DNA of 64,000 nt from Sedimentisphaerales bacterium (GTDB taxonomy: Bacteria; Planctomycetota; Phycisphaerae; Sedimentisphaerales; SM23-30). Below, one piece after another: positions 744 to 32,296 of the stretch; the stretch's first letter is position 1, and each line of letters begins with the position of its first letter. The notes beneath the pieces are model-generated. The model was not told the DNA's origin. It did no database searches and was given only the letters and a program-made list of their open reading frames with translations. A program made the position numbers and the translations under genes. The stretch lies in the NCBI GenBank assembly GCA_963666285.1, contig OY762711.1; one strand, written 5' to 3'.

Positions 744-1005
744 GCTTCACCTGCTCTTTTTCTAATTGCTCTTGCTGAATAGCTGCTTCAAACTCAGCTT
801 CTCTTTCTTCCAGCTTAATACGGGAAGATCTTGTAGCACCAGGCAAAGGATGAGCTACTGGCAAAATTATAGAAAACGCCAAACCTCCTAAGGCAACAAC
901 AGCACCATAAGATACTATTCTATTGACCGCCCTTTTAACAGGCTTTAACTCAGTATTTTTAGTTTCATCATTATTTACATCTTCGATATGTTCTTTATCA
1001 TTCAT
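730..1005 (-). CDS. Small single-TM protein (91 aa), candidate precursor/substrate of the flanking radical SAM enzyme and peptidase
   Basis: Likely ATG at 1005 (MNDKEHIED), just after the rSAM stop; charged N-terminus, hydrophobic helix, then HPLPGATRSSR and an E/Q-rich tail; 3' end overlaps the lepB start. Confidence 0.7.
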   Translation of the reverse strand: MNDKEHIEDVNNDETKNTELKPVKRAVNRIVSYGAVVALGGLAFSIILPVAHPLPGATRSSRIKLEEREAEFEAAIQQEQLEKEQVKLEQE

Positions 1006-2066: not shown

Positions 2067-2177
2067 ATAAATTCCATAAGAAATAAAGAGTTATGAAAAC
2101 ACATAACAACACAGAGAAAATTACCACAGGCAATCTATCAGGCTATATTATATATATAACACAACATCAGAAAAAAA

Positions 2178-3074
2178 TCAATTAAAGTCATTAATATTTA
2201 TTCCGGCATTAGTAAAAACTTTCTTCAATTTCGTACAGTTCATAGATACATCGCCAATACGGGGCGGGCCGTTTTGTTCTTCATGCCGGAGGATACCTTT
2301 GAGCAGATGCGGCGGGCAATGGTATTTATCCCGGACATACTCCCCTATTTGATAGAGAGACCAGGATCGGTTGCCGCCGAAATGATAGATACCCTGGATA
2401 TCGAGCGATAAAACAGCGAAAGCCATCTCGGCAATCTGGTCGCACCAGGGGCAAGAGCGAAACTCATCATGGAAAAGGGTAACCGGTCGATCTTTGGTAA
2501 GGCGGCTCTTGACCCAATCGATAGCACCTTTGTCGCCGGTGACCGAATCGCCAAGCGGCAGGCCGAGCCGGATAATGGTATTATCGGGGATATTTTCGAT
2601 GATCTGTTCTGCCTGGTAAAATGTCTTGCCGGCGACACTAACCGGGTCCGGGATATGCTGTTCGGAATAGCCGTCAGCGGGAGGGTTATTGCCGGAGAAT
2701 ACCAGGTCGGTACTCATATAAATAATGCGGCATTGTGTGCCGAAGACATCGGCGATAGCGCGGGCACCGTTAACGTTGAGATCATAGGCCCATTCCGGTC
2801 GTTCTTCGCAGATATCGAGGTCGCAGACGCCGGCAGAATGGATAACGACGTCAGGTTGAAACTCAGCATTTATATCTCTCAGCTCTGCGGCATCGGTGAT
2901 ACACATCGGGATAATATTACTGGCGGAGATATATCTGGTTTTGGGCGGGCAGATACCGAGCAGGTTGTCTTCATCGAAATGTTTTTGCAGGGCCTGCCAG
3001 ATGGGCCAGCCGTGGATGGATGTTATGCCGGTAGCGAGGATTTTTTTAGATGTCAGATTGAATTGTAGCTGCAA
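2178..3074 (-). CDS. RmlD-like (dTDP-4-dehydrorhamnose reductase family) NAD(P)-dependent SDR
   Basis: PDVVIHSAG, CEERPE..NVNGA and YMSTDLVFSG motifs; the canonical YGxxK appears as AGKTF, so activity is uncertain; start uncertain. Confidence 0.7.
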   Translation of the reverse strand: MQLQFNLTSKKILATGITSIHGWPIWQALQKHFDEDNLLGICPPKTRYISASNIIPMCITDAAELRDINAEFQPDVVIHSAGVCDLDICEERPEWAYDLNVNGARAIADVFGTQCRIIYMSTDLVFSGNNPPADGYSEQHIPDPVSVAGKTFYQAEQIIENIPDNTIIRLGLPLGDSVTGDKGAIDWVKSRLTKDRPVTLFHDEFRSCPWCDQIAEMAFAVLSLDIQGIYHFGGNRSWSLYQIGEYVRDKYHCPPHLLKGILRHEEQNGPPRIGDVSMNCTKLKKVFTNAGININDFN

Positions 3075-27460: not shown

Positions 27461-28057
27461 CTATTTTACTTTTCGTTTCATAAGTACCGGCACTCCACAC
27501 ATCGCCATAAGAAGGACAGTTGCCGGCTCCGGCACAGCAGGGGCAGAAGAAGTTGCCATGAGACTGACATTATCAACAGACAGACAATTCATCCATCCGG
27601 CATCCAGGGTAATACCCAGCGACTGGCCAATATAACCATCATTGTCAGAACCCACAGTTGAGAAAGAGATTACCAGATCACCGGTAACGTTTCTCTGCGA
27701 CCAACGGAGTGACTGAGAAGTTATAGTATCCCAGCTATCGCCTGAAACAGCTGAAAAAGAAAGCTCCAGCGGACTTTTGAATATAGAATGAGTCGCACCA
27801 GTAACTGTTAGTACATATTCGGTTTCATCCTGGATAGCATACTCGGTATCAGTCCAGATGCTCTGGGTACTCAGAATTGAATACAGGCCATTGAACTTAA
27901 CTGCTGAATCATCAACAACATAAATTCCACTTTGTCCTTTCATAGACCAGTCGTCCAGACTGGACATATCATTCTGGTATATATTTTCGCTGATAAGGCC
28001 CGCGTTTACAAAACCGGATAGTATAAGAGTAAAAACAGTAACTAGATATTTTTTCAT
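27461..28057 (-). CDS. PEP-CTERM sorting-domain protein
   Basis: Signal peptide; C-terminal VPEPAT + hydrophobic stretch + KRKVK. Confidence 0.9.
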   Translation of the reverse strand: MKKYLVTVFTLILSGFVNAGLISENIYQNDMSSLDDWSMKGQSGIYVVDDSAVKFNGLYSILSTQSIWTDTEYAIQDETEYVLTVTGATHSIFKSPLELSFSAVSGDSWDTITSQSLRWSQRNVTGDLVISFSTVGSDNDGYIGQSLGITLDAGWMNCLSVDNVSLMATSSAPAVPEPATVLLMAMCGVPVLMKRKVK

Positions 28058-28374
28058 GCATTCTCCTCATTATTTATGACGGAAACTAACCGACATAGAT
28101 TCAATTTCGATGAACCGGCATCAAACGTACCGATATCGAAAAAATTTAGTTAAAAATAAAACTGGTAATTCGGAAATGACTCGAATGTCATGAAATGTAG
28201 ATACTGCAATATAAAATATGATAATAAATAAAGCAAATATGTTTGTTAATTTTTTCCAATTGTTTCGATTACAGCAATCATAGCTTTTCTGTATTAACAC
28301 TTGAATTATATCCAATTTTGATGATAATTATTTGAAAATAAATAACTAAAGAGAATAAATAAACATTTAATCGC

Positions 28375-29322
28375 ATGGCAATAAAAAACGCTACAACTAA
28401 AGCCCCTCGCAATCGAACCCTGTTCCTGGAAGATTCAGATATTGGCCGTCTAAAAAAGCGAATTGTTACTATTGACAGTAAGCCCAAACTTAAGGACATT
28501 CTCAATAAGACAATATGCGGCGATAGTATTGAGCTGCTCGATACGCTGCCGGCAGCATCAGTTGATTTGCTGATAGCCGACCCACCGTATAACCTGACCA
28601 AACAGTTCAAATCAAACACATTCAAATCCGGCCAGATGGATGAATACCGACAATGGCTGGAGCTGTGGATACCAAAAATGGTGCGGCTGTGTAAACCTAA
28701 TGCCAGTATATATATCTGCGGTGACTGGCGGTCATCTCCGGCGATTTATTACGAGCTGGAAAAACATTTCAAAATCCGTAACAGGCTGACCTGGGAACGT
28801 GAAAAAGGCCGCGGCTCAAAGAGCAACTGGAAAAACTCACATGAAGATATCTGGTTTGCCACGATGGGTGATGAATATACATTCAATGTAGACGCGGTAA
28901 AACTTAAACGCCGCGTTATCGCGCCGTATAAGGAAAACGGCAAGCCCAAAGACTGGCATGAAAGCGATGACGGCAAATACAGGCTGACCCATCCATCTAA
29001 TATGCTGACAGATTTGAGCGTACCGTTCTGGTCTATGCCGGAAAATACCGAGCATCCGACCCAGAAACCGGAAAAACTGCTGGCCAAGCTAATCCTGGCA
29101 AGTTCAAGCCAGGGCGATGTCATATTCGATCCATTCCTCGGATCCGGCACAACCTGTGTAACCGCTAAAAAACTCAACCGTAACTATATCGGTATCGAAA
29201 AAGATGAAACTTTCTGTATGCTGGCCGAGAAACGGCTGGAGCTGGCAGAAACCGATAAAACTATTCAAGGCTATCATGACGGGGTATTCTGGGAACGTAA
29301 CACATCACCTTCAAACAGCTAG
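28375..29322 (+). CDS. Orphan N4-C/N6-A DNA methyltransferase (beta-class motif order)
   Basis: DPPY before HPTQKP and DPFLGSGTT; no adjacent endonuclease. Confidence 0.9.
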   Translation: MAIKNATTKAPRNRTLFLEDSDIGRLKKRIVTIDSKPKLKDILNKTICGDSIELLDTLPAASVDLLIADPPYNLTKQFKSNTFKSGQMDEYRQWLELWIPKMVRLCKPNASIYICGDWRSSPAIYYELEKHFKIRNRLTWEREKGRGSKSNWKNSHEDIWFATMGDEYTFNVDAVKLKRRVIAPYKENGKPKDWHESDDGKYRLTHPSNMLTDLSVPFWSMPENTEHPTQKPEKLLAKLILASSSQGDVIFDPFLGSGTTCVTAKKLNRNYIGIEKDETFCMLAEKRLELAETDKTIQGYHDGVFWERNTSPSNS

Positions 29323-29459
29323 CAGAAATCAATACCACATCACTAATTTTTTTATAAGACTTTCCAAAAATAATTTTGCCTATCTATTTTTTATATATTA
29401 GGCTTAATTCAGACATCATATGACTATTCGAGTTTGACGAGGTTAAATACTATTTAGCA

Positions 29460-29820
29460 TACCGGACCGAAACAGGGAAAGTGTAAACCGCCCGGCCACA
29501 CCAGACACGGATGTTGCGGACAAGGATTTCGCGGTTGCCGCAAGAGAGAGATAATATCGGTTGCTTCCCGGGTCCAGAATCCATCGTGTGCATTTGCGAA
29601 GACCTCGATAATTATAGGGGTTTCGGCCCCATATGCCGGGTTCACCCGCTCGTTCCGCTGGTTTGGCGGGGCTAGTGACGGTAGCGCTTCTGTGTAGGCG
29701 CCCGGCATTTATATCTGACGGATCGTGCGTCAGAGAATGATATTTGTCTGCTGTTCTGACAGCCGACACCAATAAAAAGGGCTTACCGTGTTCGACTGGA
29801 ACCGGGAGCCCTGTTTTTTA
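29460..29820 (+). ncRNA. Unassigned highly structured non-coding element
   Basis: GC-rich, many nested stems, UUCG-capped hairpin, terminal hairpin + T-run, between convergent genes; G-U pairs favour the + strand. Confidence 0.55.
29772..29820. terminator. Bidirectional intrinsic terminator
   Basis: AAAAAGGGCT...AGCCCTGTTTTTT. Confidence 0.7.
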
Positions 29821-29885
29821 TTAATAATTAGGTGTCGCTTGCTGTAATTCTTCACGTTCGACAGAACTTCAACAAACCAAAAAGA

Positions 29886-31757
29886 TTACTTCCTTTCTTC
29901 TATTAGTTTACCGGCAACCAGGTTGACTTTGTATTCTTTCCTGCCGGGTTGGTAATCGATTTCTGCTGACACATCTTCATATTTGTTTCTATCGTATTCG
30001 GCATCTATTCCGTAAAACCAGCTTTCAGACAACTGAACTTCTACTGCAGCATTGGCATTTGCCGGTGCTTCAATTTCAAACCGGCCCTCTGCGTCTGTAT
30101 GAGAAATATTTCGATATCTTTTACCGTCAACAACCAGGTTTACAAATCTGCCACCTAGCTTTTTACCGGTTTGTGTTTCCAAAACTCCACTAATCTTAAT
30201 TTCTTTCTTGTACAGCTTAACCTGTATATCTTTTGAACTAAAGGGAACATCTTCTTTCATAGAAATTAGATCTTTTAGGTATCCATTTTTATTTGAAAAT
30301 ACTCTTATCTCCATTTTATTTCTGAACTGAGGAATGTATAAAATGTCAAACCTGCCATTAAGATCAGTTTTGACATTGCAATACCGTTTATATGTTTCAT
30401 AATCAATCTGTTTATTCAGATGCCAGCCTTGATAATAATATTTAGTATTTCCATTTTTAATACCATTTCCTTCTCCATCCAGCGGTTTAACAAACACATC
30501 AACCTCTACATCCGGTACCGGTTTTCCGTCAGTATCCACTATTGTCCCTGTTATTCTGCCAGCCTGCTCCATTACCATTACAATATCTCTTGCATCAATG
30601 AGGGAAAAAGCACCTTTGACATTGCCAACCTTACCCGGCGACTTAATATCTTCACTGGTTGAAAGTACAACCCAGCCGACTTCATTATTGCCTTCTTTAT
30701 AAGCCCTCAGCAAAACAGGTAAAGCTGCTTGTTTACCCATATCGGCTACTGTAATTGGCGGCAAGGTATAAAAGAACCTACCATATTGATCGGTGATGTA
30801 TTTCTTCGGCCCTCGTAAAGCTGCCGGACCGCTACCCTCCAGAACCTCAACTATTGCTCCCTCTACAGGATTGCCGTCAGAATCGATTACCTTTCCAGAT
30901 ACACTGCCGCCTTCCTCTCTTTCCATTTCTTTGTAATCCTCTAAATAGTCAGGATAGAATATTTCTTCTGGTATCAGATCATAGTTTGCATCAATATTTA
31001 CACTGACATCCAGTCCGTTACCATTTATTATTTTCACATTAATATTCAATGGCCGCATAGTTTTCGGGTCAACAACAGCCTGCCCGCTGCCAGTTGATGT
31101 TTTACGCGTATTCTCTGTATACTCAAAGGAATAACTTAAATCAAAGATCATCTTTTCTTTGGTACTATCTTCTTTGTTATGAACTGCGGTCAGGCCTTCA
31201 ACTTCTTTGATATCACCATTATTATTAAACAAGCCAAAAAACCTGATGAAACTTTTATCTGCAACAGGTTCAAAAGTATTTTTTGAAGGCGAATAGCGAT
31301 ACGTCTTTTTTTCGTGATTTATCAGAAGAAAATCGATACCGTTATCTATTTCAGTCGAATCATCCTCATCATGACGATAATGATCGGGCAGACGGAACCA
31401 CATCTTTTCAGTTTCCGGGTCTTCGCCATCCATAACCCGGGTTACCACAATAGACACACTCTCAGATGCATAAAGATTTTTTACAATATTCGCCCAGGCA
31501 GTTGTCGCACCATCAGGCGAAACGCCGCTTTTGTTCAAACCGACAAACAAAGCCAATAAAATAATTGCCGCTATTGCCGGCGGTAATAATCTAACAGGTT
31601 TTTCCATGATCATATTCCATATTCTATTGCCGGACTTCTGTCTCGATTGGCTTTTATGCAAAGCGATAGCCTCGGTTAAAACCTCGTCGCGCAGTTCCGG
31701 GCGTGGTTCAATATTAAGTTCAGATATAAGTATTTTCATCTCTTTTGGCGATCTCAT
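29886..31757 (-). CDS. Putative anti-sigma factor with LolA-like and carboxypeptidase-regulatory-like domains
   Basis: ATG 31757 overlaps the sigma stop (ATGA); TM after WNMIMEKP; repeated G.V.D.DG.PV.G..V...TD..GRF modules. Confidence 0.7.
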   Translation of the reverse strand: MRSPKEMKILISELNIEPRPELRDEVLTEAIALHKSQSRQKSGNRIWNMIMEKPVRLLPPAIAAIILLALFVGLNKSGVSPDGATTAWANIVKNLYASESVSIVVTRVMDGEDPETEKMWFRLPDHYRHDEDDSTEIDNGIDFLLINHEKKTYRYSPSKNTFEPVADKSFIRFFGLFNNNGDIKEVEGLTAVHNKEDSTKEKMIFDLSYSFEYTENTRKTSTGSGQAVVDPKTMRPLNINVKIINGNGLDVSVNIDANYDLIPEEIFYPDYLEDYKEMEREEGGSVSGKVIDSDGNPVEGAIVEVLEGSGPAALRGPKKYITDQYGRFFYTLPPITVADMGKQAALPVLLRAYKEGNNEVGWVVLSTSEDIKSPGKVGNVKGAFSLIDARDIVMVMEQAGRITGTIVDTDGKPVPDVEVDVFVKPLDGEGNGIKNGNTKYYYQGWHLNKQIDYETYKRYCNVKTDLNGRFDILYIPQFRNKMEIRVFSNKNGYLKDLISMKEDVPFSSKDIQVKLYKKEIKISGVLETQTGKKLGGRFVNLVVDGKRYRNISHTDAEGRFEIEAPANANAAVEVQLSESWFYGIDAEYDRNKYEDVSAEIDYQPGRKEYKVNLVAGKLIEERK

Positions 31758-32296
31758 AGTATCACCTCGCAATCTACTAACGATCTGAGTTTATCTATGC
31801 CGTAACGATAACGGCTCCGAACTGTATTGACCGAAGTGTTACGGAATTGGGCGATCTGGGTAAATTTCATCCCGCCGTGAATATGCAGGATAATAATTTC
31901 CCGCTGCTCGTACGGCAACTGTGCTAATGCCGCATTGATAATAGCATTTTTCTCGTTTTGGATCGCTGACGCCGCCGGATTAACAGAATCGGCTTCAAAC
32001 AGATCACCATCTTCCAGACCGGTCGGCCCAAGCTTACGCCTTTTCAGGGCGTTTTTGGCCAGATTTGCCACACAAGTTGCCAGGTACGACCTAAAATTGC
32101 CGTTAATCCTAATCTTGTCAGGCGATTTCACAAACGAGACAAAGAAATCATGCAAAACATCCTCTGCGGCATGAGTGTCATTAAGCAAACCGGTGGCCAC
32201 GGTCAGCAGATAACGCTCATACTTATCGTAAATCCTTTCGAGAGCCGCACTTGAACCTCGCTTGAACTTCCATAAGAGCAGTTTGTCTTCTATCAC
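31754..32296 (-). CDS. ECF RNA polymerase sigma factor
   Basis: AAEDVLHD region 2; LP..QRE......GMKF.QIA....SVNTVRSR region 4. Confidence 0.92.
   Translation of the reverse strand: MIEDKLLLWKFKRGSSAALERIYDKYERYLLTVATGLLNDTHAAEDVLHDFFVSFVKSPDKIRINGNFRSYLATCVANLAKNALKRRKLGPTGLEDGDLFEADSVNPAASAIQNEKNAIINAALAQLPYEQREIIILHIHGGMKFTQIAQFRNTSVNTVRSRYRYGIDKLRSLVDCEVIL

Follow-up and report, generated by a model that had tools for sequence, protein, structure and literature searches.

A putative free-standing gene for a multi-domain structured RNA in one family of Sedimentisphaerales

What is encoded by a GC-rich island of roughly 400 nucleotides (nt) that lies between two convergent genes and holds no credible open reading frame (ORF)? 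The question is raised by a 64,000-nt stretch of contig OY762711.1 (assembly GCA_963666285.1) from a Sedimentisphaerales bacterium, referred to here as the window, in whose positions coordinates are given; the RNA under discussion lies on the + strand, and the genome that carries its gene comprises 6.35 Mb in 4 contigs and is 97 % complete. Sedimentisphaerales are abundant anaerobic polymer degraders of sediments and digesters, and to our knowledge almost no regulatory RNAs have been described in Planctomycetota. An initial annotation, made from the sequence alone, placed a large structured RNA candidate at 29460-29870 and proposed a standalone non-coding RNA (ncRNA) of possibly undescribed class. 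That proposal is borne out by the lack of any Rfam family for the island, by covarying homologs, by an upstream element and a terminator that bracket the RNA, and by neighbouring genes that change from genome to genome. The reading favoured here, with a probability of roughly 55 %, is that the island is a free-standing gene for a multi-domain structured ncRNA of an undescribed family, for which a protein-bound action in trans is proposed.

Three sets of helices are conserved by compensatory changes, the first of which shapes the 5′ domain:

29437-29610, + strand: 5′ domain (D1), the conserved core, delimited by covariance models R2 and R3
29438-29444 with 29601-29607, + strand: P1, the closing helix, covarying over 21 sequences
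29457-29462 with 29586-29591, + strand: P1a (GCAUAC/GUGUGC), pairing in 4 of 4 same-genus sequences, with one-sided changes
29464-29468 with 29571-29575, + strand: P2 (GGACC/GGTCC), covarying over 21 sequences
29475-29479 with 29565-29569, + strand: P3 (GGGAA/TTCCC), covarying over 21 sequences
about 29480-29564, + strand: apical part of D1, variable

In P1, P2 and P3 taken together, 91.3 % of the cells are paired and both sides are changed in 12 of the 18 pairs, in an alignment that was fitted to the model structure and thereby favours it. None of 500 shuffles reaches the observed values, and registers slid by one to three columns pair in 24-55 %. The junction bases of D1 are strongly conserved, including an AAA that follows P2. 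While P2 and P3 had been recognised in the initial annotation, P1a had been missed and the proposed start at 29460 falls 23 nt inside the first helix, P1 beginning at 29438, so that the true start is earlier. The pairings suggested for the inner part of the domain fared less well. AACCG/CGGTT pairs as aligned in two of the four same-genus sequences and not in the other two, and TTGCGG/CCGCAA pairs, among these four, in this genome only. The suggested pseudoknot (29505 with 29582) shows no pair changed on both sides and competes with P1a; its ACAC/GUGU half is pairable in all four sequences through one-sided changes only, and for its GAUG/CAUC half no more than 37.5 % of the cells are paired. 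No stable helices emerged when the apical part was folded by consensus. A Shine-Dalgarno mimic in P1 was considered and rejected, as P1 covaries away from GAGG in two lineages. The strand is taken to be + because of the G-U pairs (32 of the 368 helix cells of P1, P2 and P3), on which the same assignment had been based before, the U-run that follows the terminal hairpin and the single orientation of the upstream element.

Behind D1 follow a middle region and a terminal hairpin, which hold the second and third sets of helices:

29617-29630, + strand: small hairpin after D1 (GGGG-UUUCGG-CCCC), with a differently sequenced hairpin at the same place in nearly all homologs
29633-29708, + strand: branched middle domain (the D2 equivalent), closed by AUGCCGGG with CCCGGCAU, covarying within the genus
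29714-29734, + strand: hairpin UCUGACG-GAUCGUG-CGUCAGA, from the minimum-free-energy (MFE) fold and a four-sequence alignment, in which 4 of 8 pairs are changed on both sides
29745-29770, + strand: hairpin ahead of the genus-conserved AGCCGACAC, from the MFE fold and a four-sequence same-genus consensus fold, found in this genus only
29779-29811, + strand: terminal three-part hairpin with loop GACUG, followed by UG and six U (29814-29819), a conserved module and predicted intrinsic terminator

In nine other lineages, the middle domain consists of an invariant GGCUGGC, a 13-bp helix and a small hairpin with an A-rich loop. The 13-bp helix is paired in 93.9 % of its cells and changed on both sides in 6 of 13 pairs; none of 500 shuffles reaches its covariation score, and slid registers pair far less. 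Across 13 lineages, no consistent stretch complementary to GGCUGGC was found inside the RNA. The 5′ motif UGCCGGGUUC of the present genome corresponds to GGCUGGCGGGUUC in the family, and its 3′ motif GCCCGGCAUUUAUAUC to CCGGCGUAAAUAAUC. Within the genus, the closing helix reads GCCGGG/CCCGGC (29635/29701 here), GGUGGG/CCCGCC or GGCGGG/CCCGUC, a covariation that upholds the multibranch closure drawn earlier at 29633/29701. The hairpins formerly given as GGGGT-TTCG-GCCCC (29617-29630) and TCTGACG/CGTCAGA are likewise retained, the first through its counterparts in the homologs and the second through changes on both sides.

Of 25 homolog rows, 23 keep the layout of the terminal hairpin and its U-run. 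In 22 aligned sequences, the hairpin is paired in 97.8 % of its cells and changed on both sides in 7 of 13 pairs, values that none of 500 shuffles reaches, with far less pairing in slid registers, and the GACUG loop is nearly constant. The alignments of this hairpin and of the 13-bp middle helix were plain MAFFT alignments, independent of the model structure. With a 40-nt fold of -21.2 kcal/mol, the module has the make-up of an intrinsic (Rho-independent) terminator, as had been predicted, whereas the predicted extension of the hairpin by CGACACC/GGTGTCG finds no partner after the U-run in three same-genus relatives. The exact terminal-loop pattern has one other hit in the 6.35-Mb genome, where the flanking stems are absent. 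The idea that the GACUG loop pairs with UCCAG in P2 was discarded, as the two are complementary only in this genus.

Could the island nevertheless contain no RNA gene, and either be where two convergent genes share a 3′ region and a bidirectional terminator or code for a small protein? The flanking genes do converge in the window:

28375-29322, + strand: DNA methylase gene, left neighbour of the island
29886-31772, - strand: gene for a 628-amino-acid (aa) CarboxypepD_reg-domain protein, right neighbour, convergent

In addition, the terminator hairpin has in this genome an A-run before it as well as the U-run after it, and the island is overlapped by several short ORFs, four on the - strand (109, 84, 47 and 41 aa) and one on the + strand (54 aa). 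The A-run is, however, absent in other genomes, the element is conserved beside different neighbours and different gene orientations, and three helix sets are kept by compensatory changes. Neither do the ORFs behave as genes: those scanned (109 and 84 aa on the - strand, 54 aa on the + strand) have no Pfam match, no ORF is conserved by position or length among 23 homologs, for which the longest + strand ORFs were compared, and one 617-nt homolog has no ORF of more than 37 aa. A hidden small gene after GAGGU was also rejected, since TTG-started ORFs are present in some homologs only. The absence of a credible ORF noted at the outset thus holds, as does the GC-rich island itself, with a GC content of 0.49-0.56 across 29400-29800 against 0.35-0.36 in the AT-richer spacer to the left and 0.385 to the right. 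An explanation that dispenses with an RNA gene is accordingly regarded as highly improbable.

If the island encodes an RNA, does this belong to a known family? A search of Rfam 15, suggested in the initial annotation as a check, gave no match at gathering score in the entire 64-kb window. Within 29300-29950, admitting E-values up to 10, chance-level matches only were obtained (E 0.37-9.5), far below gathering score and lying outside or across the core, and the 20 homologous loci likewise gave chance-level matches only, with no family recurring. Divergent forms of the housekeeping RNAs were rejected, as the genome has its own copies at other places: RNase P RNA (C1:2722187-2722563, 283 bits), transfer-messenger RNA (tmRNA; C1:933820-934178, 157 bits) and signal recognition particle (SRP) RNA (C1:6220-6318, 71 bits), each matched over the full length, as well as 6S RNA (C1:373774-373961). 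The earlier statement that signatures of RNase P, tmRNA, SRP and riboswitches are lacking therefore agrees with these searches. The RNA resembles the polymerase- or protein-titrating RNAs 6S, Ms1 and CsrB/RsmZ in what is predicted for it, namely stability, action in trans, pairing between its 5′ and 3′ parts, a promoter of its own and an intrinsic terminator. It differs from 6S RNA in that its 5′ domain is branched in the apical part, in contrast to the 6S rod with a central bubble, and from CsrB/RsmZ in that GGA motifs are not enriched. The GGA counts in 12 homologs are 6-16, compared with 6.6-20 expected from mononucleotide shuffles, lying within about 1.6 standard deviations of the shuffles in all 12 and below the mean in 7, and a CsrB/RsmZ-type CsrA sponge was rejected on this ground. 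One site, ACACGGAUGU at 29505-29514, resembles the CsrA consensus from in vitro selection (SELEX). A csrA gene is present in the genome. A Y RNA bound by Ro60/Rsr was rejected as well: the TROVE domain (PF05731) has no match in the 97 %-complete genome, while the positive control was matched in Deinococcus and Bacteroides, so that a Ro60/TROVE gene appears to be missing.

The literature that was searched contains no report of such an RNA, this search having covered the comparative-genomics surveys PMC2864571 (Weinberg 2010) and PMC11109978 (Narunsky 2024) apart from their supplements. The sole planctomycete entry found in the text of the former is Rhodopirellula-1, a cis-regulatory candidate, and the main text of the latter names no group of the Planctomycetes-Verrucomicrobia-Chlamydiae (PVC) assemblage. 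The orphan motifs of both surveys, as presented in these texts, are similar in kind, being GC-rich intergenic islands in AT-richer genomes with covariation and a terminator, but none of those listed there comes from this clade. As far as Rfam 15 and the searched literature reach, the RNA family is new, while its kind, an orphan structured bacterial RNA, is familiar.

How widely is the RNA distributed? The candidate stretch is single-copy in the 6.35-Mb genome. When 60 relatives were searched at BLAST level, one same-genus genome proved to contain the entire element and five others the 3′ hairpin alone. T9SS-type domains encoded nearby had at first suggested an origin in Bacteroidota, which was dropped in favour of a planctomycete of the class Phycisphaerae. 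The terminal-hairpin pattern occurs in 7 records of a species-level genome collection (6 Sedimentisphaerales and 1 Pirellulales), and a metagenome scan gave 11 hits, of which five were unrelated coding sequences and six were added as loci, five showing the 5′ domain and one (L034) being cut at the 5′ end. The true homologs, which range from about 300 to about 880 nt, all start with ACGAGGUU, the partner of an AACCUCG situated 150-200 nt or so downstream, and all close with the terminal hairpin. A first covariance model built from the genus alone (R1) proved too narrow, giving other genera 5-20 bits, and was replaced by two models of the 5′ domain, R2 (11 sequences) and R3 (21 sequences), both of which match 29437-29610 on the + strand as the sole match in the window. 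R2 matches 18 of the 25 genomes of one Sedimentisphaerales family, once each, and R3 recovers two of five non-matching genomes, again with a single match in each, so that the total is 20 of 25; this count treats as negative two further R2 non-matchers (78 % and 70 % complete) that lay outside the R3 search. The weak matches within the family are genuine, as the upstream element is present and the terminal hairpin mostly so. Among 126 other genomes of the order only one weak, partial, coding-like match was seen, and there was none among 148 genomes sampled from the class or 149 from the phylum. These outside searches were samples run under Infernal's stricter filters with a family-trained model, and the result is to be read as not found in those searched. 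Homologs with compensatory changes, the lack of which was to count against the proposal in the initial annotation, are present in these 20 family genomes. A single copy of the RNA is conserved in the majority of the genomes of this family, whose members are anaerobic planctomycetes of sediments. In another Sedimentisphaerales genome, the locus L025 contains at about 900-935 (- strand) a near-copy of the terminal hairpin, GGGCCUUCUGCGUUCGACCGGAACCAGAGGCCC, which lacks a U-run and is not preceded by a 5′ domain in the 900 nt upstream of it; it may represent either the hairpin module occurring alone or a longer RNA.

Since the neighbouring genes differ between genomes, the RNA is neither an untranslated region nor a leader, and the earlier exclusion of a 5′ untranslated region, which relied on the convergent flanking genes, can be maintained. 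The neighbours include genes for a DNA methylase, Abi_2, TrmO, MntP, a TPR protein, an FkbM methyltransferase and a Kdo transferase. The downstream gene, convergent in the present genome, encodes in relatives Abi_2 (convergent), TrmO, a TPR protein (convergent), an FkbM methyltransferase or a Kdo transferase. This variation bears on the idea that the RNA belongs to a mobile or defence island, as ROOL and GOLLD are often prophage-borne. Its position is non-syntenic even within the genus, and it follows a DNA methylase gene here and precedes an Abi_2 gene in one relative; on the other hand, exactly one copy is found in each of the 20 genomes, the other neighbours are ordinary (TrmO, MntP, Kdo transferase), no integrase or phage genes were seen adjoining it in the loci read, and the lack of matches outside one family fits vertical descent. 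An island-borne RNA is therefore considered very unlikely. In the relative with Abi_2 (locus L002 of genome G003, from the same genus), the RNA is followed by a gene for an Abi_2 abortive-infection protein, 2086-3015 on the - strand, and just upstream of this gene, at 3023-3071 (- strand), lies a sub-threshold match to the abiF RNA (30.9 bits, gathering score 37).

While the flanking genes vary, a layout of boxes ahead of the RNA does not:

29364-29400, + strand: promoter-like element, composed of an A-tract (29364-29373), TTTGCCT (29375-29381), 8 bases and TTTATATATTA (29390-29400)

The layout aaAaaa-N11-aTTTGCcT-N8-TTTATATtTTA precedes the RNA in 23 of 24 homologs, in a single orientation; its distance to the 5′ domain is mostly 18-29 nt and in rare cases as much as 173 nt. 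It would represent a dedicated promoter or a promoter-plus-regulator site. A sigma-70 promoter was rejected, the two conserved boxes being 10 nt apart instead of 16-18 and a consensus scan being negative, and a sigma-54 promoter was rejected as well, as no GG precedes the GC of TTTGC by 10 nt in the instances inspected by eye. By contrast, the tmRNA gene of the same genome has an ordinary TTGACT-17-TATAAT. Three same-genus relatives and one other genus have an extra GC hairpin (e.g. GGCGGCAGCAGUGUCGCC) between the upstream element and the 5′ domain (L004 at about 1040-1075, L003, L002 at about 1435-1460 and L006 at about 800-830), which is absent in the present genome.

Is the island transcribed? 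Contigs of the element were found in RNA libraries of four studies, which dealt with sediment, a microbial mat, a wetland and marine sediment; each study contributed one run with one to three contigs. They are 107-168 nt long and confined to 29446-29658, and show presence, neither ends nor strand. A single base separates the contig covering 29446-29613 from the window. The 22 base differences listed for the contigs are all located at 29500-29556 or at 29621/29626, sparing the conserved stems and junctions. These contigs give moderate support to an abundant transcript of the 5′ domain. No RNA-library contig covers the flanking genes, but nothing is concluded from this, given that this stretch itself served to find the runs and that the flanks differ in relatives.

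The extent of the contigs is of interest for the main rival explanation, a riboswitch-like sensor, in which D1 would act as an aptamer for a ligand or a protein and decide between a stop at a GC-rich hairpin behind D1 and read-through into the middle domain and terminal hairpin, giving a short and a long RNA of different activities. P1 closes D1, whose junction bases are strongly conserved, a U-run follows the second hairpin behind D1 in about 8-9 of some 20 lineages (folds read by eye), the RNA-library contigs stop in or just after that zone (29613-29658), and an AT-rich spacer separates the RNA halves in one genome. However, contig ends are not transcript ends, the hairpins behind D1 are without a U-run in this genome and many others, no alternative pairing was found between the 3′ strand of P1 and these hairpins, and no known aptamer model matches. 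Moreover, no ORF or conserved gene follows the RNA, nor is it a riboswitch or cis-regulatory leader of the usual kind, having no conserved same-strand downstream gene and always a terminator in between. Some ncRNAs are controlled by riboswitches, as in the case of EutX/Rli55, which are controlled by a B12 riboswitch; the present RNA resembles them in its structured 5′ domain closed by P1, the terminator-like hairpin seen in some lineages and the further non-coding RNA behind it, but differs in that no known aptamer matches, nothing points to a ligand and an internal terminator is not seen in all lineages. Overall, the sensor is judged unlikely.

For the free-standing structured ncRNA, the following course is proposed. 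Transcription of the + strand would start at about 29405, a few bases past an upstream element that is not of sigma-70 type, and would end at the terminal hairpin and its U-run (29819), giving an RNA of about 385-415 nt. This RNA would most likely act in trans, either as the RNA part of a ribonucleoprotein (RNP) or as a protein-titrating regulator, and its contact sites would be the invariant unpaired motifs GGCUGGC, GCCGAAAC, the AAA after P2 and the GACUG loop; in addition, a shorter stable RNA of about 170-215 nt may remain from the 5′ domain. A protein-bound RNA agrees best with the size of the molecule, with its three conserved modules and with invariant unpaired motifs that lack internal partners.

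The same invariant 7-mer may be viewed differently, as the seed of a base-pairing small RNA (sRNA) with a large structured body, in which GGCUGGC or a similar motif would bind mRNAs and the terminal hairpin with its U-tail would bind a chaperone. The gene has its own promoter-like element and terminator, its neighbours are not conserved, the 7-mer is unpaired and without internal partner, and the sequence of the terminator hairpin is conserved. Yet 300-880 nt and three covarying domains far exceed the usual structure of base-pairing sRNAs, and the seed-like motif is altered in this genus (GCCGGG here, GGUGGG and GGCGGG in relatives) and missing from the shortest homologs. Such an sRNA appears improbable, and only slightly less so is a more specific proposal that combines several of the above elements. 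According to this, the RNA may be a lineage-specific RNP core or sensing device without a counterpart among known systems, in which D1 would be a new ligand- or protein-responsive fold that is terminated or released as a stable species of about 175-215 nt and gates a longer, GGCUGGC-bearing form, expressed from a promoter that is not sigma-70-like and is perhaps shared with genes for PEP-CTERM cell-surface proteins.

Among known systems, the OLE, ROOL and GOLLD RNAs come to mind. OLE is accompanied by adjacent protein genes, whereas the present RNA has no conserved partner gene. The Rfam models of all three match neither here nor at the 20 homolog loci, and the RNA is smaller (about 400 nt here), confined to one planctomycete family, chromosomal and single-copy. 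These large ‘ornate’ orphan bacterial RNAs, the subject of a cryo-EM study (PMC12286853), are, like the present RNA, free-standing, several hundred nt long and multi-domain, with covarying helices, invariant unpaired motifs, peripheral insertions that vary the length, and no assigned function.

Several observations weigh against the free-standing, protein-bound ncRNA favoured here. The trans-acting, protein-bound mode was reached by exclusion, and no particular protein partner is indicated. The RNA either is not universal in the family or has diverged in the non-matching genomes, three of which (99 %, 95 % and 88 % complete) have no match even by R3, and in the shortest homologs the middle domain is either absent or can no longer be recognised. 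DNA can occur in RNA libraries, and one of the four runs was flagged as probably DNA. The consensus scan of 29250-29950 found no sigma-70-type site, and a simple perfect-stem terminator scan of the same interval reports no terminator, the terminal hairpin being missed because its stem is bulged. The single-sequence fold is only modestly better than shuffles, on the + strand (-137.6 kcal/mol, z -2.5) as on the opposite strand (-123.3 kcal/mol, z -2.1), and folding energy decides nothing by itself.

Single-copy multi-domain RNAs with an unusual upstream element of their own have in past cases proved to be ribozymes, sensors or the core of an RNP. A minimal construct for probing, pull-down and structure determination can readily be derived from the three covarying modules, the unpaired motifs that do not vary and the natural size series from about 300 to about 880 nt. 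The narrow distribution limits the general reach of the finding.

A possible link of the upstream element to other genes was sought with a 45-nt weight matrix from which the site ahead of the RNA in this genome had been excluded. Its best hit in the genome lies outside the window, at G000:C1:1758288-1758332 (+ strand, 28.0 bits, A-tract included), 106 nt ahead of a gene for a 223-aa PEP-CTERM protein. The third-best hit (about 28212-28256, - strand, 21.3 bits) is located 154 nt before the ORF at 27461-28057 (- strand). With a matrix of the core only, 3 of 44 downstream ORFs are PEP-CTERM-like for hits of at least 13 bits and none of 178 for hits at 9-13 bits. A regulon of the upstream element that includes PEP-CTERM genes is thus a weak lead. 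The ORF at 27461-28057 (- strand), of 198 aa, has no Pfam match and encodes a signal peptide and a C-terminal tail of VPEP, hydrophobic and basic parts; its product is predicted to be a PEP-CTERM sorting-signal protein. On the other side of the island, a gene for an extracytoplasmic function (ECF)-type sigma factor (31754-32296, - strand) shares 19 bases with the beginning of the CarboxypepD_reg-domain gene, and this overlap suggests that the two genes form one operon.
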